From contig JAPKYE010000028.1 of NCBI GenBank assembly GCA_026394495.1, positions 6,691-70,690 of the forward strand: a DNA stretch of 64,000 nucleotides, written 5' to 3'. Shown piece after piece: positions 11,872 to 55,396 of the stretch (within the stretch, counting starts at the first letter, position 1; each line of letters opens with the position of its first letter). Made by a program: the position numbers and the translations under genes. The notes beneath the pieces are model-generated. The model searched no databases, was not told where the DNA came from, and was given only the letters and a program-made list of their open reading frames with translations. The DNA comes from Methanobacteriota archaeon. Its GTDB lineage: Archaea > Thermoplasmatota > E2 > DHVEG-1.

Positions 11872-12333
11872 ATGACTGATTTACGAAATCAACGCCGGAT
11901 GGCTGCATCAATTCTGAAATGCGGTAGGAACCGGGTATGGATGGATCCAGACAGAATGGAAGAGATAGCGAAAGCGGTCGTCCGAAAAGACATCCGCGTG
12001 CTCATCAACGGAGGAGCAGTAAAAAGCCTCCGGATACAAGGTATTTCCAGTGGACGAAGAAAATTAAACATCATACAGAAAGAAAAAGGCAGACAACGAG
12101 GCTTTGGCTCACGAAAAGGAAAGAAACATGCACGTCTGCCAAAAAAAGACCGCTGGATGCAAACAATCCGGGCGTTACGGACGTATCTAGCCCAACTTCG
12201 AGAAGAAAAAAAACTGGATCCGACGAGTTACCGAACATACTATATGAAATCAAAAGGCGGCGAATACCGCAGTGTGAACCATTTGAAATCCCATCTGATC
12301 TCAGATGGCGTCATTAAGGAGGAGAAACAATGA
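11872..12333 (+). CDS. rpl19e: 50S ribosomal protein eL19
   Basis: MTDLRNQRRMAASILKCGRNRVWMDP... Confidence 0.9.
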   Translation: MTDLRNQRRMAASILKCGRNRVWMDPDRMEEIAKAVVRKDIRVLINGGAVKSLRIQGISSGRRKLNIIQKEKGRQRGFGSRKGKKHARLPKKDRWMQTIRALRTYLAQLREEKKLDPTSYRTYYMKSKGGEYRSVNHLKSHLISDGVIKEEKQ

Positions 12334-15367: not shown

Positions 15368-16552
15368 ATGCACCCATTGCACATCACCATTAATGATCGT
15401 ATTATTCTTGTGGGAACAGCCCATATTTCTCAAGAGAGCGTTGACGAGGTACGAACAGTTATTGAAACAACTCAACCCGATATTGTTGCTGTGGAACTCT
15501 GCGAACGGCGATACAAGGCGCTCACTGAGAAAACAAAATGGGAGAACACACCAATCACTGCTTTACTCAAATCAAATATGGCGTATCTTATTCTTGCACA
15601 GACGTTTCTTTCTGCGATCCAGCGGAAACTAGGCAAAGAACACGGCATTGAACCTGGCTCAGAAATGATCGCAGCTATTGACGAAGCAAAAAAACAACAA
15701 AAAACTATTGCGTTAATCGACCGTGACATCACCATTACCTTGAAACGAGCATGGCGGAAGATGGGAATCCGCGAGAAAACCCGGCTTGCTTGGGAGTTCA
15801 TGAAAGCATTGTTTGGATATGATGACGAAGAACTCGAAGAGCTTGACCTCAAAGAACTCATGAAACAAGATGTGATCTCTGCGATGATGGAAGAATTCAA
15901 AGACATCGCACCAAGCGCCGCCGAAGTACTCATTTATGAGCGAGATGCATACATCGCCAAAAAAATTTTTGAGGAAAGCAAAAAAGGAAAAGTCGTTGCG
16001 GTCGTTGGCGCAGGACATATCGAAGGCATCAAGCATCATCTCGAAGAAAAAGAACTCAACGTTGACTTAGAGAAACTTGAACAAATACCAAAAAAACGCA
16101 TCAGTGTCGGAAAAGTAGCTGCTGTTGCAGTTCCAGTGATTTTTGCAGCGGTTGTGTTTTGGCTTATTTTCTCACAAGGATTCAATCAGGCATCCTGGGA
16201 CAAAATCAAAGATATATTCCTGATATGGTTCCTAGTACACGGCTGTCTCTCAGGCCTTGGCGTTTTGATTGCTAGGGGGCATCCTCTCGCAATTCTCACC
16301 GCGTTTGTTGCAGCTCCGTTTACCTCACTTGAACCGTTTTTTGCCCCGGGTTGGTTTGCTGGTGTCGTAGAAGCAAAATTCCGGATGCCTGTGGTAAAAG
16401 ATTTCCAAGGACTGAGCAACATCGAAAGCATGAAGGATTTTTTTAACAATAAAGTCATCCGCCTCATCATGGTTGTCGCACTCGCAAACCTGGGAAGCAT
16501 CATTGGTACAATTATTGCGCTTCCCTGGATTCTAAGCCTAGGGGTTGGATAA
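15368..16552 (+). CDS. TraB/GumN family protein with C-terminal transmembrane segments
   Basis: N-terminal ILVGTAHISQES...VAVELCERR TraB signature; hydrophobic C-terminus. Confidence 0.7.
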   Translation: MHPLHITINDRIILVGTAHISQESVDEVRTVIETTQPDIVAVELCERRYKALTEKTKWENTPITALLKSNMAYLILAQTFLSAIQRKLGKEHGIEPGSEMIAAIDEAKKQQKTIALIDRDITITLKRAWRKMGIREKTRLAWEFMKALFGYDDEELEELDLKELMKQDVISAMMEEFKDIAPSAAEVLIYERDAYIAKKIFEESKKGKVVAVVGAGHIEGIKHHLEEKELNVDLEKLEQIPKKRISVGKVAAVAVPVIFAAVVFWLIFSQGFNQASWDKIKDIFLIWFLVHGCLSGLGVLIARGHPLAILTAFVAAPFTSLEPFFAPGWFAGVVEAKFRMPVVKDFQGLSNIESMKDFFNNKVIRLIMVVALANLGSIIGTIIALPWILSLGVG

Positions 16553-18803: not shown

Positions 18804-20354
18804 ATGGAATTGAAACGTGCGCTAATCAGTGTTTCTGATAAGACAGGTCTTGTTGAATTAGCAACCGTGTTTTCTAAAGCAGGTATTGAGATTATCTCCA
18901 CAGGTGGCACTGCATCGGTGTTACAGAAAGCTGGGATTTCTTTTATAGATATTTCTGATGTCACTGGTTTTCCTGAGATGCTTGATGGCCGGGTGAAAAC
19001 CCTTCATCCAGTTGTTCATGCAGGGATTCTTGCAGAGCGAAAGAAAAAAGAACATATGGCTACGTTACAAAAACACAAGATACAACCTGTTGATATCGTG
19101 GTATGTAACCTGTATCCTTTTGAGCAGACGATTAAAAAACCAGATGTGAAAATCGAAGAAGTCATTGAAAATATTGATATCGGCGGGCCGACGTTGATAC
19201 GGGCAGCAGCAAAAAACTATCAGGATGTCATTGTGGTCACAAATCCACAACAGTACCCGGAGATCATCAAAGGTATCACATCAAAAAAAGGATTTACTGA
19301 GGAACAACACAGAAGATTAGCTCTTGAAGCATACACACATACAGCGCAATACGACAGCATTATTTCCCAGTATCTTCACAGTAAGTGGACCACAGAGGTA
19401 TTACCTGAGAACCCGTCGTTTACCATGCGTAAGATAGAGGAAATGCGCTACGGGGAGAATCCGCATCAGAAAGGTGCATTTTATCAAAAACTTCCCGAGG
19501 TTACAGAACCATGTATTACTACTTCAAAACAACTTCAAGGAAAGGAACTATCGTTTAACAACATCCTTGATGGGAACTGCGCGATTGAATGCATAAAAGA
19601 GTTTTCTGAGCCGTCCTGCGTCATCATCAAACATGCAACGCCCTGCGGGGTTGCAAGTGCAAAAACATTGCTGCAGGCATGGAAAGATGCCTATGCCACA
19701 GACGTCTTTTCTCCTTATGGCGGTATTGTCGCGTTTAACCAAGAAGTAGATCGCGGCGTTGCTGAAGAGCTGTCCCCCTATTTTCTTGAAGTGATTATCG
19801 CCCCTCATTTTAGTAAAGATGCTTTTTCTGTGTTCGGAAAAAAGAAAAACCTCAGACTGCTTGAATGCACAAGTCTAGGAACAGATATTGAACGCAAAGG
19901 ACTTGATATCCGCAGCGTCGTCGGAGGATTTCTCATCCAAGAACGAGACATATGGTTTTCACCAAAGGAAAACTGGAAGGTTGTCACTACAAAGAAACCG
20001 TCTATTGAGGATCTTGCATCGATGGAGTTTGCAGTACGCTGTGTAAAACACGTGAAATCAAACTCAGTGCTGTTTGTGAAAGGAACACAGACTGTTGCTA
20101 TCGGCGGCGGACAAACCTCCCGGGTGGATGCCACATGGATTGCAACCCATAAAGGAAAAGATAACATAAAAGGATCAATCATGGCAAGCGATGCGTTTTT
20201 CCCATTTCGAGATGGAGTCGATGTCGCTGCACAAGCCGGAGTAAAAGCAATCATTCAACCCGGTGGAAGCATCCGCGATGAAGAAGTAATCCAGGCGGCA
20301 AACGAACATGGGATTTCGATGGTGTTTTCCGGGCAGCGATACTTTAGACATTGA
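18804..20354 (+). CDS. purH: Bifunctional AICAR transformylase / IMP cyclohydrolase
   Basis: MELKRALISVSDKTGL (MGS-like domain) followed by the AICARFT domain; 516 aa. Confidence 0.9.
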   Translation: MELKRALISVSDKTGLVELATVFSKAGIEIISTGGTASVLQKAGISFIDISDVTGFPEMLDGRVKTLHPVVHAGILAERKKKEHMATLQKHKIQPVDIVVCNLYPFEQTIKKPDVKIEEVIENIDIGGPTLIRAAAKNYQDVIVVTNPQQYPEIIKGITSKKGFTEEQHRRLALEAYTHTAQYDSIISQYLHSKWTTEVLPENPSFTMRKIEEMRYGENPHQKGAFYQKLPEVTEPCITTSKQLQGKELSFNNILDGNCAIECIKEFSEPSCVIIKHATPCGVASAKTLLQAWKDAYATDVFSPYGGIVAFNQEVDRGVAEELSPYFLEVIIAPHFSKDAFSVFGKKKNLRLLECTSLGTDIERKGLDIRSVVGGFLIQERDIWFSPKENWKVVTTKKPSIEDLASMEFAVRCVKHVKSNSVLFVKGTQTVAIGGGQTSRVDATWIATHKGKDNIKGSIMASDAFFPFRDGVDVAAQAGVKAIIQPGGSIRDEEVIQAANEHGISMVFSGQRYFRH

Positions 20355-20840
20355 TATACCTCTAATTTTTGATAGCGTGCTTTCACCGGTTTGTTTTTTG
20401 TAAATTTATTTTACACATAAAAAGAATCGCTTTGGTGTGTTGATTGGTTGTTTACAGGTGATGTATAATTATTATCTTAGGCTTGAGAACTCATTTTTTC
20501 CTCTATGAAACTATAGAATTAATCAGCAATAATATTTTATTTTGAAAGATAGAGGAACTTTGCTTTTTTTTGCTTTATAAGTATTTCTCTAAAAATTGCG
20601 ACATATTTATATAATAGCAGTGATAAATATATACACGTGCATGACATTGCCACGCATTGAAGGTGGCATGGTTGTCAAGACGAAAATAAAATATATATGG
20701 AAAAGGGGGAAAAAAAGAAAAAAATCAAAAATTTTGTTTGGGAAAAGGCTGTAGTTTTCTTAATGGAGAAAATGACGACCAGGACGTAACCGTTAGAAGT
20801 CCTTATCCTGGAAGGCAAAAAAATATTAAAAAAAAACTGT

Positions 20841-21695
20841 ATGAAAAAGGAGAAAAAGAAAAACATGAAAAATACTAAAATTTTTGGGATAGGAATAGCA
20901 GCGTTTATGATTTTAGCTGTATTTACAGTAATGATGGCCACGCCTGTACTGGCTGACGGTGATCCTTATGATGGCGCAAATGGAACCGCAGACCATCCTG
21001 ATGGACATCCTGGTCTACCTGGAGATGCAAGTCATCCAAATGGTGGTAACGGCGGGCATGCGTACCCAGGTAGTACCGGTAATGGTGGAAAAGGTGGCGA
21101 TGGAGCCTACCAAAATCCTGGTGATGGTGGCAAAGGAGGAAATGGTGGACAAAGTGCTGGTAATGGGAATGGCGGGGATGGCGGCAAAGGCGGAGGCAGC
21201 GGATCTGGTAAAGGTGGCGATGGTGGAGACGCGGGAAACTCTGGTCCCGGCAGTGGTAATGGTGGCAAGGGTGGAGAAGCAGGAGGCAGCAGTACTGGTG
21301 AGGGTGGCGAGGGTGGACACGGTGGAAACGCTGGTGGAACTGGTAATGCTGGCGAAGGTGGAGACGGCGGAGACAGCGGTACTGATAATGGCGGAGATGC
21401 AGGAGATGGGGGAAACAGTGTTGGTGGTGGTGGTGGAGACGGCGGAGACGGCGGTGATAGCGGTGGTGGTTTAACTAAACATGCCGGTGATGGCGGTGAT
21501 GGTGGAAATGGAAATCCTCCTGGAGAAGGGGGACATCATGGGACATGTGGAGGTGGGTGGCAAGGCTGGGATGGAGATGACGGCGATGTCCCACCAATAC
21601 CAGGGGAGAAAGGGAAATTTGAAAAGGTCATAAAAGGGATTGAAACAGGTGTGGAAGTAGGGAAAGTAATAGCACCCCTAATAAAAGTAAAGTAA
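20841..21695 (+). CDS. Secreted Gly/Asp/Asn-rich tandem-repeat protein (GNGGKGGDG-type repeats) with signal peptide and basic amphipathic C-terminal tail
   Basis: N-terminal KNTKIFGIGIAAFMILAVFTVMMATPVLA signal; ~200 aa of degenerate GGxGGxG repeats; coding strand G-rich, giving spurious ORFs in other frames. Confidence 0.6.
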   Translation: MKKEKKKNMKNTKIFGIGIAAFMILAVFTVMMATPVLADGDPYDGANGTADHPDGHPGLPGDASHPNGGNGGHAYPGSTGNGGKGGDGAYQNPGDGGKGGNGGQSAGNGNGGDGGKGGGSGSGKGGDGGDAGNSGPGSGNGGKGGEAGGSSTGEGGEGGHGGNAGGTGNAGEGGDGGDSGTDNGGDAGDGGNSVGGGGGDGGDGGDSGGGLTKHAGDGGDGGNGNPPGEGGHHGTCGGGWQGWDGDDGDVPPIPGEKGKFEKVIKGIETGVEVGKVIAPLIKVK

Positions 21696-21760
21696 CTCCC
21701 TTTTTTCCTTTTTTTTCTTTCTCTTTTTTTTCTTTCAGCCTAAGACCTGCTTTTTTTGAC
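21696..21760 (+). terminator. Pyrimidine/T-rich tract downstream of the Gly-rich gene (candidate archaeal oligo-T terminator)
   Basis: ctcccttttttccttttttttctttctcttttttttcttt immediately after the stop codon. Confidence 0.35.
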
Positions 21761-21791
21761 AAAAACCAGACATTCTTTGTCGGAAACCCGA

Positions 21792-22050
21792 TAATTCCCA
21801 TAGGCATGACCTACAACCCCTTTCGTTGACCTGTTTTCAGAAGCTCTAATTACTCAGTAAAAACCAGGAGAAAAACACTTCCTATCTGTGTGACATTTTC
21901 ATTTCCCATCGGCGTCACCCAAAAACACCCTCGTTGACCCAGCCTCCTCCGGGAGAAATTTCCCATCCGCATGACCTGAAGTTTTTCCCATCGGCGTGAC
22001 ATTGCATTTCCCATCTCTGTAACATTTCATTTCCAGTCATTGTGACAACG
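21792..22050 (+). repeat. Array of 7 same-orientation repeats, consensus (A)TTTCCCATCGGCGTGACATT; two ~40-bp long copies and a final block of 4 contiguous 22-25-bp tandem units
   Basis: Copies start at ~21795, 21879, 21904, 21961, 21986, 22008, 22031; copies 1 and 3 extend to ...ACC-N7-ACCC-TTCGTTGACC. Confidence 0.7.
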
Positions 22051-22163
22051 TGCTCCCAATTTTTATCACATAATGTCTTCTGTCAGTCATTTTACTCATT
22101 CATTGCTACAATCCTTTAAAAAATGCTAACCTTCTTTAAAGAGGAGAGCATATCTTTTATCCA

Positions 22164-24008
22164 ATGCAATTTACTGTAAAAAAACGCGATGGCCCTGCAC
22201 GAATCGGCGAGCTTACTATTGACCAATCCATAGTTACTACCCCTACGATTCTCTATGTTCACACCACACGATGTACTGCACCAGATTTTGCGGATATGCT
22301 TTTAACAAATAATATAGCGAAAACACAGAAACCTGCTTTGAAAGTTCTTGGGAGTATTTTTTCAAAAGAGAATGTTACGGCAAATGAACTGACTCTATCT
22401 GATTATTTGTTGTATCCAAAAGATGTCCCAACGCAATTACATAAAGATGCATTCAAACATATAGATAAAAAGAACGCAGGATGTGTCATTGTTCCCGCGG
22501 ATCCATTGCTAATCCCTGATATAACACAAGACTCCACTGCAACCATATTTATTGTTGCGAATGCTGCTCAACTCTTCTCTCAGCAGTCCGCATTCATTAG
22601 TTTCATTATTCAATTACGAGAGCACATCGGCTATCAGAAAACAATCTATCTTCCTTGCCTTGGTGATCCGACGAATCTTGCGGTTTTTACCTATATGGGT
22701 ATTGATCTCTTTGACTCGATGGCAGCGGTTCTTGCTGCACGAAACAATATTTTCTTATTTTCGACGGGTCCCTATCAAAAAAACGATCTGAGTGAACTTC
22801 CCTGCAGCTGCCCTGCTTGTACTAATGCAGGAAATGATCCATCGAAAATGGGTTACCCTGAGATCCTTCAGCACAACAACCATGGTCTTTACAACGAGTT
22901 GAAACAAATCAGAAATGCGATCACTCAAGGACAACTCAGAGAACTTGTGGAAATCAGGGTGCGAGCACATCCTGAACTCACCGCAGTTCTTCGACATCTT
23001 GATTCTGATCATTACCCTTTTCTTGAAGAAAGAACTTCTCTAATACGAAAACATCCGTTGATTGCGACAACAAAGGAAGCACTCACCCGTCCGGAGGTAC
23101 GACGATTTCAAGAACGAGTAATTCATCGTTACAAAAAACCAAAAAACGCAAAAATTTTACTTTTGCTACCTTGCTCATCAAAGAAACCGTATTCGTTTTC
23201 AAAATCACATAACCTCTTCCAACAACGGCTTTTTGGTGCGAAAAACCCGTCTGTCGTCCATGAACTCATCATCACCTCCCCTCTTGGCGTTGTCCCAAGA
23301 GAACTCGAACTTATCCCTCCTGCTTCATCCTATGATATCTCTGTCACTGGCCACTGGGATGAAGATGAAAAACACATGATTCGCACACTTCTTCAGACAT
23401 ACCTCAAAAAAAACAAGTACGAAACAGTGATCATACATCTCCCGTTAGGTCTTGCAGAGTTTGTCACTGATCTTTTTGTGGACCCAATCATCACCTGTAC
23501 CGATAAACCAACATCAGAGGAATCCTTACACAACCTTTCTCTAGCCTTAGAAAAAACCACAGTATCCTACGACAACATCCCTGTTTCAATACGTGTAAAA
23601 GAAAACATGAAAGCAATAGCCAACTTTCAATTCGACGAAAAAGCTGCAGACATCCTTTTCAACGAAAGCGAAGTACGAGGAAAATACCCGTACTGGAAAC
23701 TTCTCTCAAATAAAAAACAAATAGGGATGATCACCCAGGAACGCGGATTTCTATCACTCACACTTGATGGGGCAGAACGATTGAAACAATCAGGAACATA
23801 TTGGGTAGACATCGCTGATGATTTCATCTTGAAAGGATCGTTGTTTGCCCCAGGCGTCAAAGATGCAGACTCACTGATTCGAATTGGCGATGAAGTTGTC
23901 GTAACGAGGAATAAATTAGTCTGTGGCGTTGGTGTCGCCCAGATGAACGGTACAGAAATGAAAGAATCTACAAAAGGGGAAGCAGTGAAACTGAGACATA
24001 TCGCGTAA
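22164..24008 (+). CDS. arcS: Archaeosine synthase ArcS (TGT-like domain + Zn-binding CxCxxC + PUA), alpha subunit of the ArcS/RaSEA system
   Basis: N-terminal KKRDGPARIGEL TGT-like fold; CSCPAC zinc motif; ArcS signature PC-x3-KPY-x2-S-x2-H present as LLPCSSKKPYSFSKSH; C-terminal PUA-like domain. Confidence 0.75.
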   Translation: MQFTVKKRDGPARIGELTIDQSIVTTPTILYVHTTRCTAPDFADMLLTNNIAKTQKPALKVLGSIFSKENVTANELTLSDYLLYPKDVPTQLHKDAFKHIDKKNAGCVIVPADPLLIPDITQDSTATIFIVANAAQLFSQQSAFISFIIQLREHIGYQKTIYLPCLGDPTNLAVFTYMGIDLFDSMAAVLAARNNIFLFSTGPYQKNDLSELPCSCPACTNAGNDPSKMGYPEILQHNNHGLYNELKQIRNAITQGQLRELVEIRVRAHPELTAVLRHLDSDHYPFLEERTSLIRKHPLIATTKEALTRPEVRRFQERVIHRYKKPKNAKILLLLPCSSKKPYSFSKSHNLFQQRLFGAKNPSVVHELIITSPLGVVPRELELIPPASSYDISVTGHWDEDEKHMIRTLLQTYLKKNKYETVIIHLPLGLAEFVTDLFVDPIITCTDKPTSEESLHNLSLALEKTTVSYDNIPVSIRVKENMKAIANFQFDEKAADILFNESEVRGKYPYWKLLSNKKQIGMITQERGFLSLTLDGAERLKQSGTYWVDIADDFILKGSLFAPGVKDADSLIRIGDEVVVTRNKLVCGVGVAQMNGTEMKESTKGEAVKLRHIA

Positions 24009-55162: not shown

Positions 55163-55396
55163 TTACCCCCTAAACTCGATATCCATCCAATGCCAATCAA
55201 TTATGAAATTTATTAGTGAAATTATATTTTTAATTAGCCGAATGATATTTTGAATAATATGGGTACTTTGTATGTTTGTTGGTTGTTGCAGTTTATTTGT
55301 TTCTACAATGGTATTGAACCGCATTGCAGATATTGATGGTGCTAGTATCAGCAATAAACAAGCTACGAAGACCCCAAATATGTTGTTAATTTTCAT
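55163..55396 (-). CDS. Small secreted hypothetical protein (MKINNIFGVFVACLLLILAPSISA…)
   Basis: Internal Met of a longer table ORF; signal peptide; upstream part overlaps the plus-strand gene. Confidence 0.3.
   Translation of the reverse strand: MKINNIFGVFVACLLLILAPSISAMRFNTIVETNKLQQPTNIQSTHIIQNIIRLIKNIISLINFIIDWHWMDIEFRG

Follow-up and report, generated by a model that had tools for sequence, protein, structure and literature searches.

A row of direct repeats in inserted DNA between purH and arcS of an uncultured Thermoplasmatota archaeon, tentatively read as an orphan array of protein-binding sites

The DNA considered here, called the window, is a 64-kb stretch of a contig from a Methanobacteriota archaeon (GTDB: Thermoplasmatota; E2; DHVEG-1) and corresponds to a housekeeping region. 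Pfam scans took in ∼55 of its open reading frames (ORFs), nearly all of those of at least 200 aa. They identify ribosomal proteins, purH (18804-20354) and arcS (22164-24008), together with GluRS, a polyprenyl synthase, IPP isomerase, IP kinase, glycine-cleavage proteins and genes of the mevalonate pathway. Orc1/Cdc6, Rep, integrase, transposase and obvious regulator genes are all missing among these ∼55 ORFs. Among species representatives, the best ArcS match reaches 55% identity. In four relatives (L001, L003, L006 and L007), purH abuts arcS, with only 37-45 bp between the stop of the former and the start of the latter. Roughly 20355-22095 of the window is therefore inserted DNA and not ancestral.

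The insertion comprises an AT-rich spacer (20355-20840, 486 bp, GC 0.30), an ORF encoding a Gly-rich protein, runs of T and the array of direct repeats under study (GC 0.45). Repeats are frequent in all of this DNA, with units of 9, 42 and 87 nt in the Gly-rich ORF and T-rich units of 8 and 15 nt after it. The Gly-rich ORF has no real homologues, and a search among 1.84 billion representatives returned seven weak matches only. A gap of 469 bp separates it from arcS. Oligo-T tracts have a known role in archaeal termination, and the T-rich tract at the start of this gap probably acts as such a terminator. The coordinates of all these features are compiled in Table 1.

The array consists of seven plus-strand copies of the motif TTTCCCATCnGYRTGACAT, located at 21794-22052 and recognized by reading of the sequence, by a direct-repeat search (families D6, D8, D13 and D17) and by TRF, which calls a tandem repeat of period 23 with a score of 67 at 21984-22034. 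The units are 17-20 bp long and belong to two subtypes, type I (A, C and D) and type II (B, E, F and G). From A to G, their starts are separated by 84, 24, 57, 25, 23 and 23 bp. Three copies (A, B and C) are thus scattered upstream of a tandem block, in which the last five units, including a decayed unit H, follow each other head-to-tail (D-E-F-G-H) with periods of 25, 23, 23 and 23 bp. The first-pass annotation of this DNA had described seven copies of ∼20 bp in the same orientation within ∼260 bp, the last four of them contiguous at 21957-22050 with a period of 22-25 bp. The repeat search, TRF and sequence reading all bear this out, the spacing in the contiguous part being 25, 23 and 23 bp. 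The extended unit of ∼40 bp that had been ascribed to the first and third copies is likewise real: units A and C carry an extension of ∼15 nt, and 21795-21831 and 21903-21939 are 76% identical over 37 nt (family D17). The closest pairs of units are not adjacent ones, since they associate A with C and D, and B with F. An independent Logan assembly of SRR20698646 (L028) reproduces the array region base for base, and the array is therefore no artefact of one assembly.

Table 1. Features of the purH-arcS interval in the window, and related repeat units in a contig of a relative (L190)
Feature	Coordinates	Strand	Remarks
Inserted DNA between purH and the arcS promoter, lineage-specific and strain-variable	20355-22095		Absent in L001, L003, L006 and L007
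Gly-rich ORF with N-terminal signal-peptide-like segment	20865-21695	+	No Pfam match; GC 0.52; earlier ATG at 20841 possible
T-rich tract with T6-T8 runs, between Gly-rich ORF and array	21697-21760	+	Period 8/15 repeat at 21704-21736
Unit A, type I, ATTCCCATAGGCATGACC plus extension ending CGTTGACC	21794-21831	+	Families D6 and D17; 23.6 bits
Unit B, type II, CTTCCTATCTGTGTGACATTTTC	21878-21900	+	Families D6 and D8; 25.3 bits; nearest to unit F (18/23)
Unit C, type I, TTTCCCATCGGCGTCACC plus extension ending CGTTGACC	21902-21939	+	Families D6 and D17; 26.7 bits
Unit D, type I, 25-bp period, opens the head-to-tail block	21959-21983	+	27.0 bits; aligns with L190 u1
Unit E, type II, nearest to consensus, TTTCCCATCGGCGTGACATTGCA	21984-22006	+	31.1 bits; aligns with L190 u2
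Unit F, type II	22007-22029	+	24.6 bits; aligns with L190 u3
Unit G, type II, degenerate, TTTCCAGTCATTGTGACAACGTG	22030-22052	+	Family D8; 18.3 bits; leave-one-out 4.9 bits
Unit H, decayed, CTCCCAATTTTTATCACATAATG	22053-22075	+	8.2 bits; in register, exactly 23 bp after G
Conserved arcS promoter segment	22096-22163	+	64/68 identical to L190
L190 units u1 ATTTCCCGTCTTCGTCGC, u2 ATTTCCCATTTCCGTTGC and u3 ATTTCCTGTCTTTGTGAT	76-145 of L190		Align with units D, E and F of the window

Such a cluster exceeds what chance produces in DNA of this composition. With up to three mismatches, TTTCCCATCNGCRTGAC is matched seven times in the 64 kb against 1.18 expected, and six of the seven matches fall within 230 bp; in the shuffling control that had been proposed for the array, none of 100 shuffles reached seven matches. 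A matrix built on the seven copies gives them scores of 18-31 bits, and the best score elsewhere in the window, on both strands, is 13.2 bits, with no minus-strand copy at or above 13 bits. In leave-one-out matrices, six units keep 17-29 bits and the seventh (22030) falls to 4.9 bits. A related sequence had also been pointed out near 20640, in the AT-rich spacer. The sequence GTGCATGACATTGCC is indeed present at 20637-20651, but it covers only the second half of a unit and scores below 3 bits, and so does not count as a further copy; by our own estimate, the number of comparisons is large enough for matches this long to arise by chance.

Within the 64-kb window, the motif is confined to this locus; the corresponding loci of 27 relatives have no further copies either, and the idea of a motif bound by a global regulator is rejected on that account. 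An exact-pattern scan of metagenome contigs gives at least 120 single matches, judged to be due to chance, with no clusters among the matches listed, and two viral scans give chance pairs only. One of the viral contigs (L175, 124 kb) has a tandem pair resembling the motif at 12005-12045; this match is largely forced by the pattern, and its context looks unrelated. BLAST of the array region (21740-22130) against plasmid and phage collections returns nothing.

The array is non-coding. Its period is not a multiple of three, and the ORFs that overlap it are short, devoid of Pfam matches and not conserved in the related contig L190, which rules out a coding region, one of the findings that the first-pass annotation had named as fatal to its proposal. 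Nor is there any sign of a structured RNA, a riboswitch or a C/D sRNA: Rfam yields nothing over the array better than E = 1, and folding z-scores are -0.24 (plus strand) and +1.93 (minus strand). A CRISPR-like array is rejected because spacers are missing: units D-H are contiguous, and the other gaps are irregular (84, 24 and 57 bp).

The DNA upstream of arcS varies in related genomes. Contigs of a cluster with ArcS proteins ∼90% identical (P0006 and P0125-P0128) are syntenic with the window downstream of arcS and differ from it upstream. In two of them, a giant ORF (>3178 aa and >2193 aa, with a faint RHS signal) is followed by a 484-bp gap and arcS. Upstream of arcS, the remaining contigs have an IS110-family transposase, an RHH/PIN (toxin-antitoxin) pair, a 306-bp gap and a minus-strand gene for an AAA_14/DUF4143 ATPase. 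That the Gly-rich ORF could be a fragment of the giant ORF finds no support, given its lack of real homologues. In more distant relatives (L187-L189, with ArcS 61% identical), a 272-aa minus-strand ORF lies between purH and arcS, and the array is absent. The purH-arcS interval is best read as an insertion hot spot in one genus-level lineage of uncultured Thermoplasmatota.

Comparison of the array across lineages is with a single one of these ∼90% contigs, L190. It aligns with the window at 90% identity, from position 22096 onwards only. Past the ATPase gene, at the extreme left of this contig, lie three tandem units with periods of 25 and 23 bp. The subtype order I-II-II and the 25/23 periods are common to these units and to D, E and F of the window, which indicates that the array predates the split of the two lineages. 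Copy numbers are 7-8 units in the window versus at least three in L190. In L190, the array is found 1.5 kb from arcS, flanked on both sides by the 3′ ends of convergent genes, and insertion of the ATPase gene has separated it from arcS. Its flanks have thus been exchanged and the array kept, with the Gly-rich ORF, the IS110/RHH/PIN genes or, in contigs that may also carry the array, a giant ORF upstream, and the AAA ATPase on the arcS side. This ATPase is promiscuous, with proteins 60-79% identical in Methanocellales, Patescibacteria, Nanoarchaeota and other groups. No array is found downstream of its homologues in L191-L196; the array therefore did not arrive with the ATPase, and its membership of an AAA_14/DUF4143 cassette is rejected.

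The location of the array directly upstream of arcS, to which the first-pass annotation had drawn attention, is correct as to position, the last clear unit ending 83 bp upstream of a TATA-like box in the window. This box (TTTAAAG at 22136-22142) precedes the arcS ATG by ∼22 nt and forms part of a promoter box, TTCTTTAAAG...CATAT, which spans 22133-22163 and is conserved in relatives without the array. The form TTCTTTAAA...CATAT is kept in the window and in L001, L003, L006, L007 and L187, and is considered the ancestral core promoter of arcS. Its distance from the ATG suggests that the arcS mRNA is leaderless or has a short leader. In a MAFFT alignment, 22107-22127 weakly resembles the 3′ end of purH. 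The array might be regarded as a set of operator or upstream-activating sites controlling arcS, or as a shield protecting the arcS promoter from read-through of the cargo. Its distance from the TATA-like box, the spacing of the direct repeats by ∼2.2 helical turns and its location after the T-rich terminator tract, where a roadblock or insulator would sit, are all consistent with such a role. However, the core promoter is ancestral and functions without the array in relatives, and the position of the array is not fixed, as seen from its distant location in L190. Both facts weaken the operator or insulator reading, and neither an adjacent regulator gene nor another site of at least 14 bits is found in the 64 kb. 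Control of arcS is thus unlikely, and proximity to arcS is probably irrelevant to the core promoter.

A stronger competitor is neutral drift. Here, the array would be a decaying minisatellite without function, the product of slippage or unequal exchange that multiplied a 23-25-bp unit in the junk DNA of a flexible island. TRF does call the array a tandem repeat, the insertion as a whole is rich in tandem repeats, copy number differs between the two lineages and no partner gene is present. Along the tandem block D-H, the scores fall towards arcS (27.0, 31.1, 24.6, 18.3 and 8.2 bits), as they do towards the edge of neutral tandem arrays. Moreover, orthologous units (D/E/F versus u1/u2/u3) are identical at 45 of 69 positions (65%), versus 71.5% in arcS and 74% in GluRS at 4-fold degenerate sites, and versus 94% (64/68) in the adjacent arcS promoter segment. 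Overall, the array drifts at about, or slightly above, the neutral rate.

Several properties are less easily reconciled with a minisatellite. Mismatches are not spread evenly over the unit but cluster in particular columns. Eight of 23 columns (TTCC, T, T and AC) are invariant across the window units (p ∼0.002 for random placement of mismatches), and in these columns 21 of 24 positions of the L190 units agree with the window consensus, versus 21 of 45 in the others (Fisher p = 8e-4), both tests being made too favourable by the common ancestry of the units and by the procedure used to recognize them. What appears to persist, judging from these alignments, is a TTTCC-n-R-T block, together with a weaker trace of Y-R-T-n-n-C some ∼12 bp, or one helical turn, downstream; of this second block (GTGAC), little is left in L190. 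In addition, the most similar units are not neighbours, and the array survived in two lineages while its flanks were replaced, which is unexpected for junk DNA; compact archaeal genomes have a deletion bias. A functionless minisatellite is nevertheless quite possible, if somewhat short of an even chance.

The first-pass annotation had also considered origin-recognition boxes (ORBs), and proposed cumulative GC skew as a test. The archaeal ORB consensus, CTTCCAGTGGAAACGAAAGGGGT, combines a dyad, TTCCAnTGGAAA, with a following G-string, and the version of Methanomassiliicoccales reads GTTCCAGTGGAAATGG-AGGGGTA; in that order, ORBs are mostly paired, some of them inverted, and lie near orc1/cdc6 (PMC4153887). 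The array units read TTTCCCATCGGCGTGAC and possess neither the dyad nor the G-string. The full ORB pattern, with up to three mismatches, has no match in the 64-kb window, and the ORB core pattern has none within ∼3 kb of the array, the nearest being at 15618 and 25103. All units are on the plus strand, instead of facing each other across an AT-rich unwinding element. The ∼55 ORFs scanned in the 64-kb window include no orc1/cdc6 gene, and the neighbours of the array are purH, arcS, GluRS and genes of the mevalonate pathway. Cumulative GC skew peaks locally at ∼22 kb instead of reaching a minimum there; this sign is terminus-like, the Gly-rich ORF inflates it through its G-rich coding strand, and 64 kb of DNA does not suffice for a firm verdict. 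Together with the absence of the locus in relatives, these observations lead to rejection of an ORB-type origin.

In a wider sense, the array could still mark a chromosomal replication origin if it consisted of the iterons of an integrated replicon that continues to fire. Its layout is iteron-like, it coincides with a local extreme of the cumulative skew, and AT-rich DNA is near, both in the spacer and in the right flank (22053-22163, GC 0.315). That flank, however, is partly (22096-22163) the arcS promoter, and the spacer is ∼950 bp away, separated from the array by an ORF of 855 bp. Rep genes are as absent from the 64 kb as orc1/cdc6, and similar DNA is absent from plasmid and phage collections. 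An origin of either type is thus highly improbable, and the array is unsuitable for annotating a replication origin in this genome, whether it is a binding platform or a minisatellite.

The position of the array at the edge of variable DNA evokes yet another possibility, namely that it contains the recombinase or transposase sites of one end of a mobile element (Tn7/Mu sub-terminal sites or lambda-type arm sites) and serves as a landing pad for cargo. Variable cargo beside a conserved housekeeping gene, insertions on both sides of the array and the IS110-family transposase in one variant are in line with this proposal. So is the combination of four to five contiguous and three dispersed sites, which recalls the right and left ends of Tn7. 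Against it, no inverted copies are found in the window, which has no integrase or transposase gene either; a duplication (att or target-site) linking both junctions of the insertion is not significant (p = 0.16); and IS110 elements are not known to rely on arrays of this kind. A mobile-element end is accordingly seen as quite unlikely. The same low weight is given to the broader proposal of a conserved cis landing pad, a multi-site platform for a recombinase or an initiator that would anchor the exchange of cargo upstream of arcS. On this equally doubtful view, the cargo swapped on either side of the pad in this archaeal genus would include genes for an AAA ATPase, for a secreted Gly-rich protein, for a giant surface protein and for a toxin-antitoxin pair accompanied by IS110.

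The reading preferred here, with a probability of about 40%, sees in the array an iteron-like series of protein-binding sites, orphan and belonging to accessory DNA. It is preferred because the motif is unique to the locus within the window and because the array persisted in two lineages despite exchange of its flanks. The units would be non-coding, head-to-tail sites for one sequence-specific DNA-binding protein. Each site would offer two blocks, TTCC-n-R-T and Y-R-T-n-n-C, separated by roughly one helical turn, and in the tandem part the sites recur every 23-25 bp, so that several copies of the protein could load side by side and cooperatively, to form one nucleoprotein complex acting in cis. 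The array would work in the manner of iterons, partition sites or the arm sites of recombinases, as a piece of accessory DNA lodged at the purH-arcS hot spot and not as part of the ancestral chromosome. As no partner gene is found nearby, it is classed as orphan, a cis-element of accessory or mobile DNA that may be bound in trans or may be decaying. The same architecture is seen in partition sites and in the multi-site ends recognized by recombinases and transposases.

Iterons are units of 17-22 bp present in 2-7 copies, in which the WH1 and WH2 domains of Rep contact two sub-motifs (PMC4980987). Direct repeats of ∼17-22 bp in the same orientation, in 2-7 or more copies, are what the array displays, and the earlier suggestion of iterons or multimeric protein-binding sites is sound as far as architecture goes. 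It falters on the partner: a Rep initiator gene is missing in cis, the insertion holding only the Gly-rich ORF and the window no Rep family. Since neither a Rep gene, nor a cognate regulator, nor a further copy was found, the likeness to iterons is one of resemblance and not of membership. Among the named families against which the array was compared, it belongs only to the generic intergenic tandem repeats. The motif is new, the kind of element is known and the novelty is modest.

If it is a true binding platform, the array would mark a recurrent insertion hot spot in an uncultured lineage of Thermoplasmatota and would give a handle on how archaeal flexible islands are anchored, replaced or insulated beside housekeeping genes. 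As no more than a decaying minisatellite, it would be ordinary. The value of the finding lies mainly in the context of the hot spot, and less in the repeats. Should it prove to be a landing pad, it would be an archaeal counterpart of the attachment platforms of Tn7 or integron type, with a new motif.

With ORBs and mini-ORBs, bound by Orc1/Cdc6, the array shares repeated intergenic elements of ∼20 bp that begin with TTCC, and unit G has TTCCAGT in common with the ORB consensus. It differs from them by the missing TTCCAnTGGAAA dyad and GGGGT string, by copies that are direct and not inverted around an AT-rich unwinding element, by the absence of orc1/cdc6 in 64 kb and by a locus that is not conserved in relatives. 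Intergenic minisatellites of the VNTR type likewise have head-to-tail non-coding units, variable copy number, decayed edges and near-neutral drift, whereas the units of the array are old and diverged (60-80% identical), not recently homogenized, and keep a pattern of conserved columns and a subtype order across lineages. The ends of Tn7 and Mu and the arm sites of tyrosine recombinases resemble the array by contiguous direct repeats of ∼20 bp accompanied by dispersed copies, at the edge of variable cargo and next to a conserved housekeeping gene; in contrast to them, the array has no second, inverted end, no transposase or integrase in the window and no detected target-site or att duplication at its locus. 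Finally, the iterons of theta-type plasmids (R6K, pPS10, RK2, P1 and F) differ from the array by their rep gene; the array, for its part, is chromosomal, resides in a flexible island of an archaeal host and has no similar DNA in plasmid and phage collections. What the two have in common is units of 17-22 bp in the same orientation, part of them contiguous (∼22-23 bp) and part dispersed, and two sub-motifs about one helical turn apart, like those contacted by the WH1 and WH2 domains of Rep (PMC4980987).

The junction between purH and arcS, spanning positions 20355-22095 of the window, is a recurrent insertion hot spot, as seen by comparison with L190 (a contig with ~90%-identical ArcS), L187-L189 (the lineage with 61% ArcS identity) and further contigs carrying ArcS relatives. 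Its content varies by lineage, and some have no insert at all. In L187-L189, the insert is a 272-aa ORF on the minus strand, and in the window it is a Gly-rich ORF without real homologues. Other cargo variants are a giant ORF (>3000 aa) showing a faint RHS signal and a combination of IS110, RHH/PIN and an AAA ATPase.

On the arcS side, the box TTCTTTAAA(G)...CATAT ends ~22 nt 5' of the arcS ATG. It is kept in L190, in L187 and in L001, L003, L006 and L007 (relatives in which purH lies close to arcS), where ArcS identity is only 44-90%. We take it as a putative TATA box of a leaderless or short-leader arcS mRNA. Just 5' of this promoter, CAATCCTTTAAAAAATGCTAA aligns in MAFFT to the purH 3' end of the relatives, CAACGATACTTTAGACATTAA, with a similarity that lacks statistical significance; this stretch may be what the insertion has left of the ancestral purH 3' end.

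In the product of the Gly-rich ORF, GGxGG-type Gly/Asp/Asn-rich repeats come after a signal-peptide-like N-terminus; in the DNA they show periodicities of 9, 42 and 87 nt. This protein has no Pfam match, and homologues are essentially absent among 1.84 billion representatives. A 36-nt purine-rich arm overlaps the start of the ORF, and a pyrimidine-rich tract directly past its stop is 78% complementary to this arm; the complementarity may be a low-complexity coincidence or a pairing of the 5' and 3' ends. The 30%-GC spacer upstream holds a GC-rich islet, ~190-230 bp 5' of the ORF, with three GCAT(G/T) repeats (GTGCATGAC..CGCATTGA..GGCATGGT); the islet might act as a regulatory site.

Coordinates of the features discussed, in the window and in contigs L175 and L190
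Feature	Sequence	Positions	Strand
GC-rich islet	window	20633-20680	
Purine-rich arm	window	20837-20872	
Gly-rich ORF	window	20865-21695	+
Pyrimidine-rich tract	window	21703-21738	
CAATCCTTTAAAAAATGCTAA	window	22107-22127	
Conserved box 5' of arcS	window	22133-22163	
AT-rich tandem repeat	window	55200-55255	
Tandem pair	L175	12005-12045	-
AAA_14/DUF4143 ATPase gene	L190	167-1474	-

Elsewhere in the window, a small AT-rich tandem repeat (ATTAGCCAAATGATATTTTGA x2.1, periods 13 and 21) occupies an intergenic or overlap zone. Between 54000 and 63000, GC skew is opposite in sign to gene orientation, being positive at minus-strand genes and negative at plus-strand genes; the coding strand is G-rich in most of the window outside this segment.

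Two further features lie on other contigs. The viral contig L175 (IMG/VR UViG_2788500396_000001) carries an intergenic tandem pair, ATTCCCATGAACGTGACGTT / TTTCCCATAAACGTAACATT, of 21-bp period and similar to the direct-repeat motif of the window; the likeness is probably coincidental, because the search pattern imposed much of the match. The AAA_14/DUF4143 ATPase gene of L190 has homologues, 60-79% identical, in phyla as distant as Methanocellales, Thermoplasmatota, Patescibacteria, Nanoarchaeota and WOR-3, which suggests that it is horizontally mobile.
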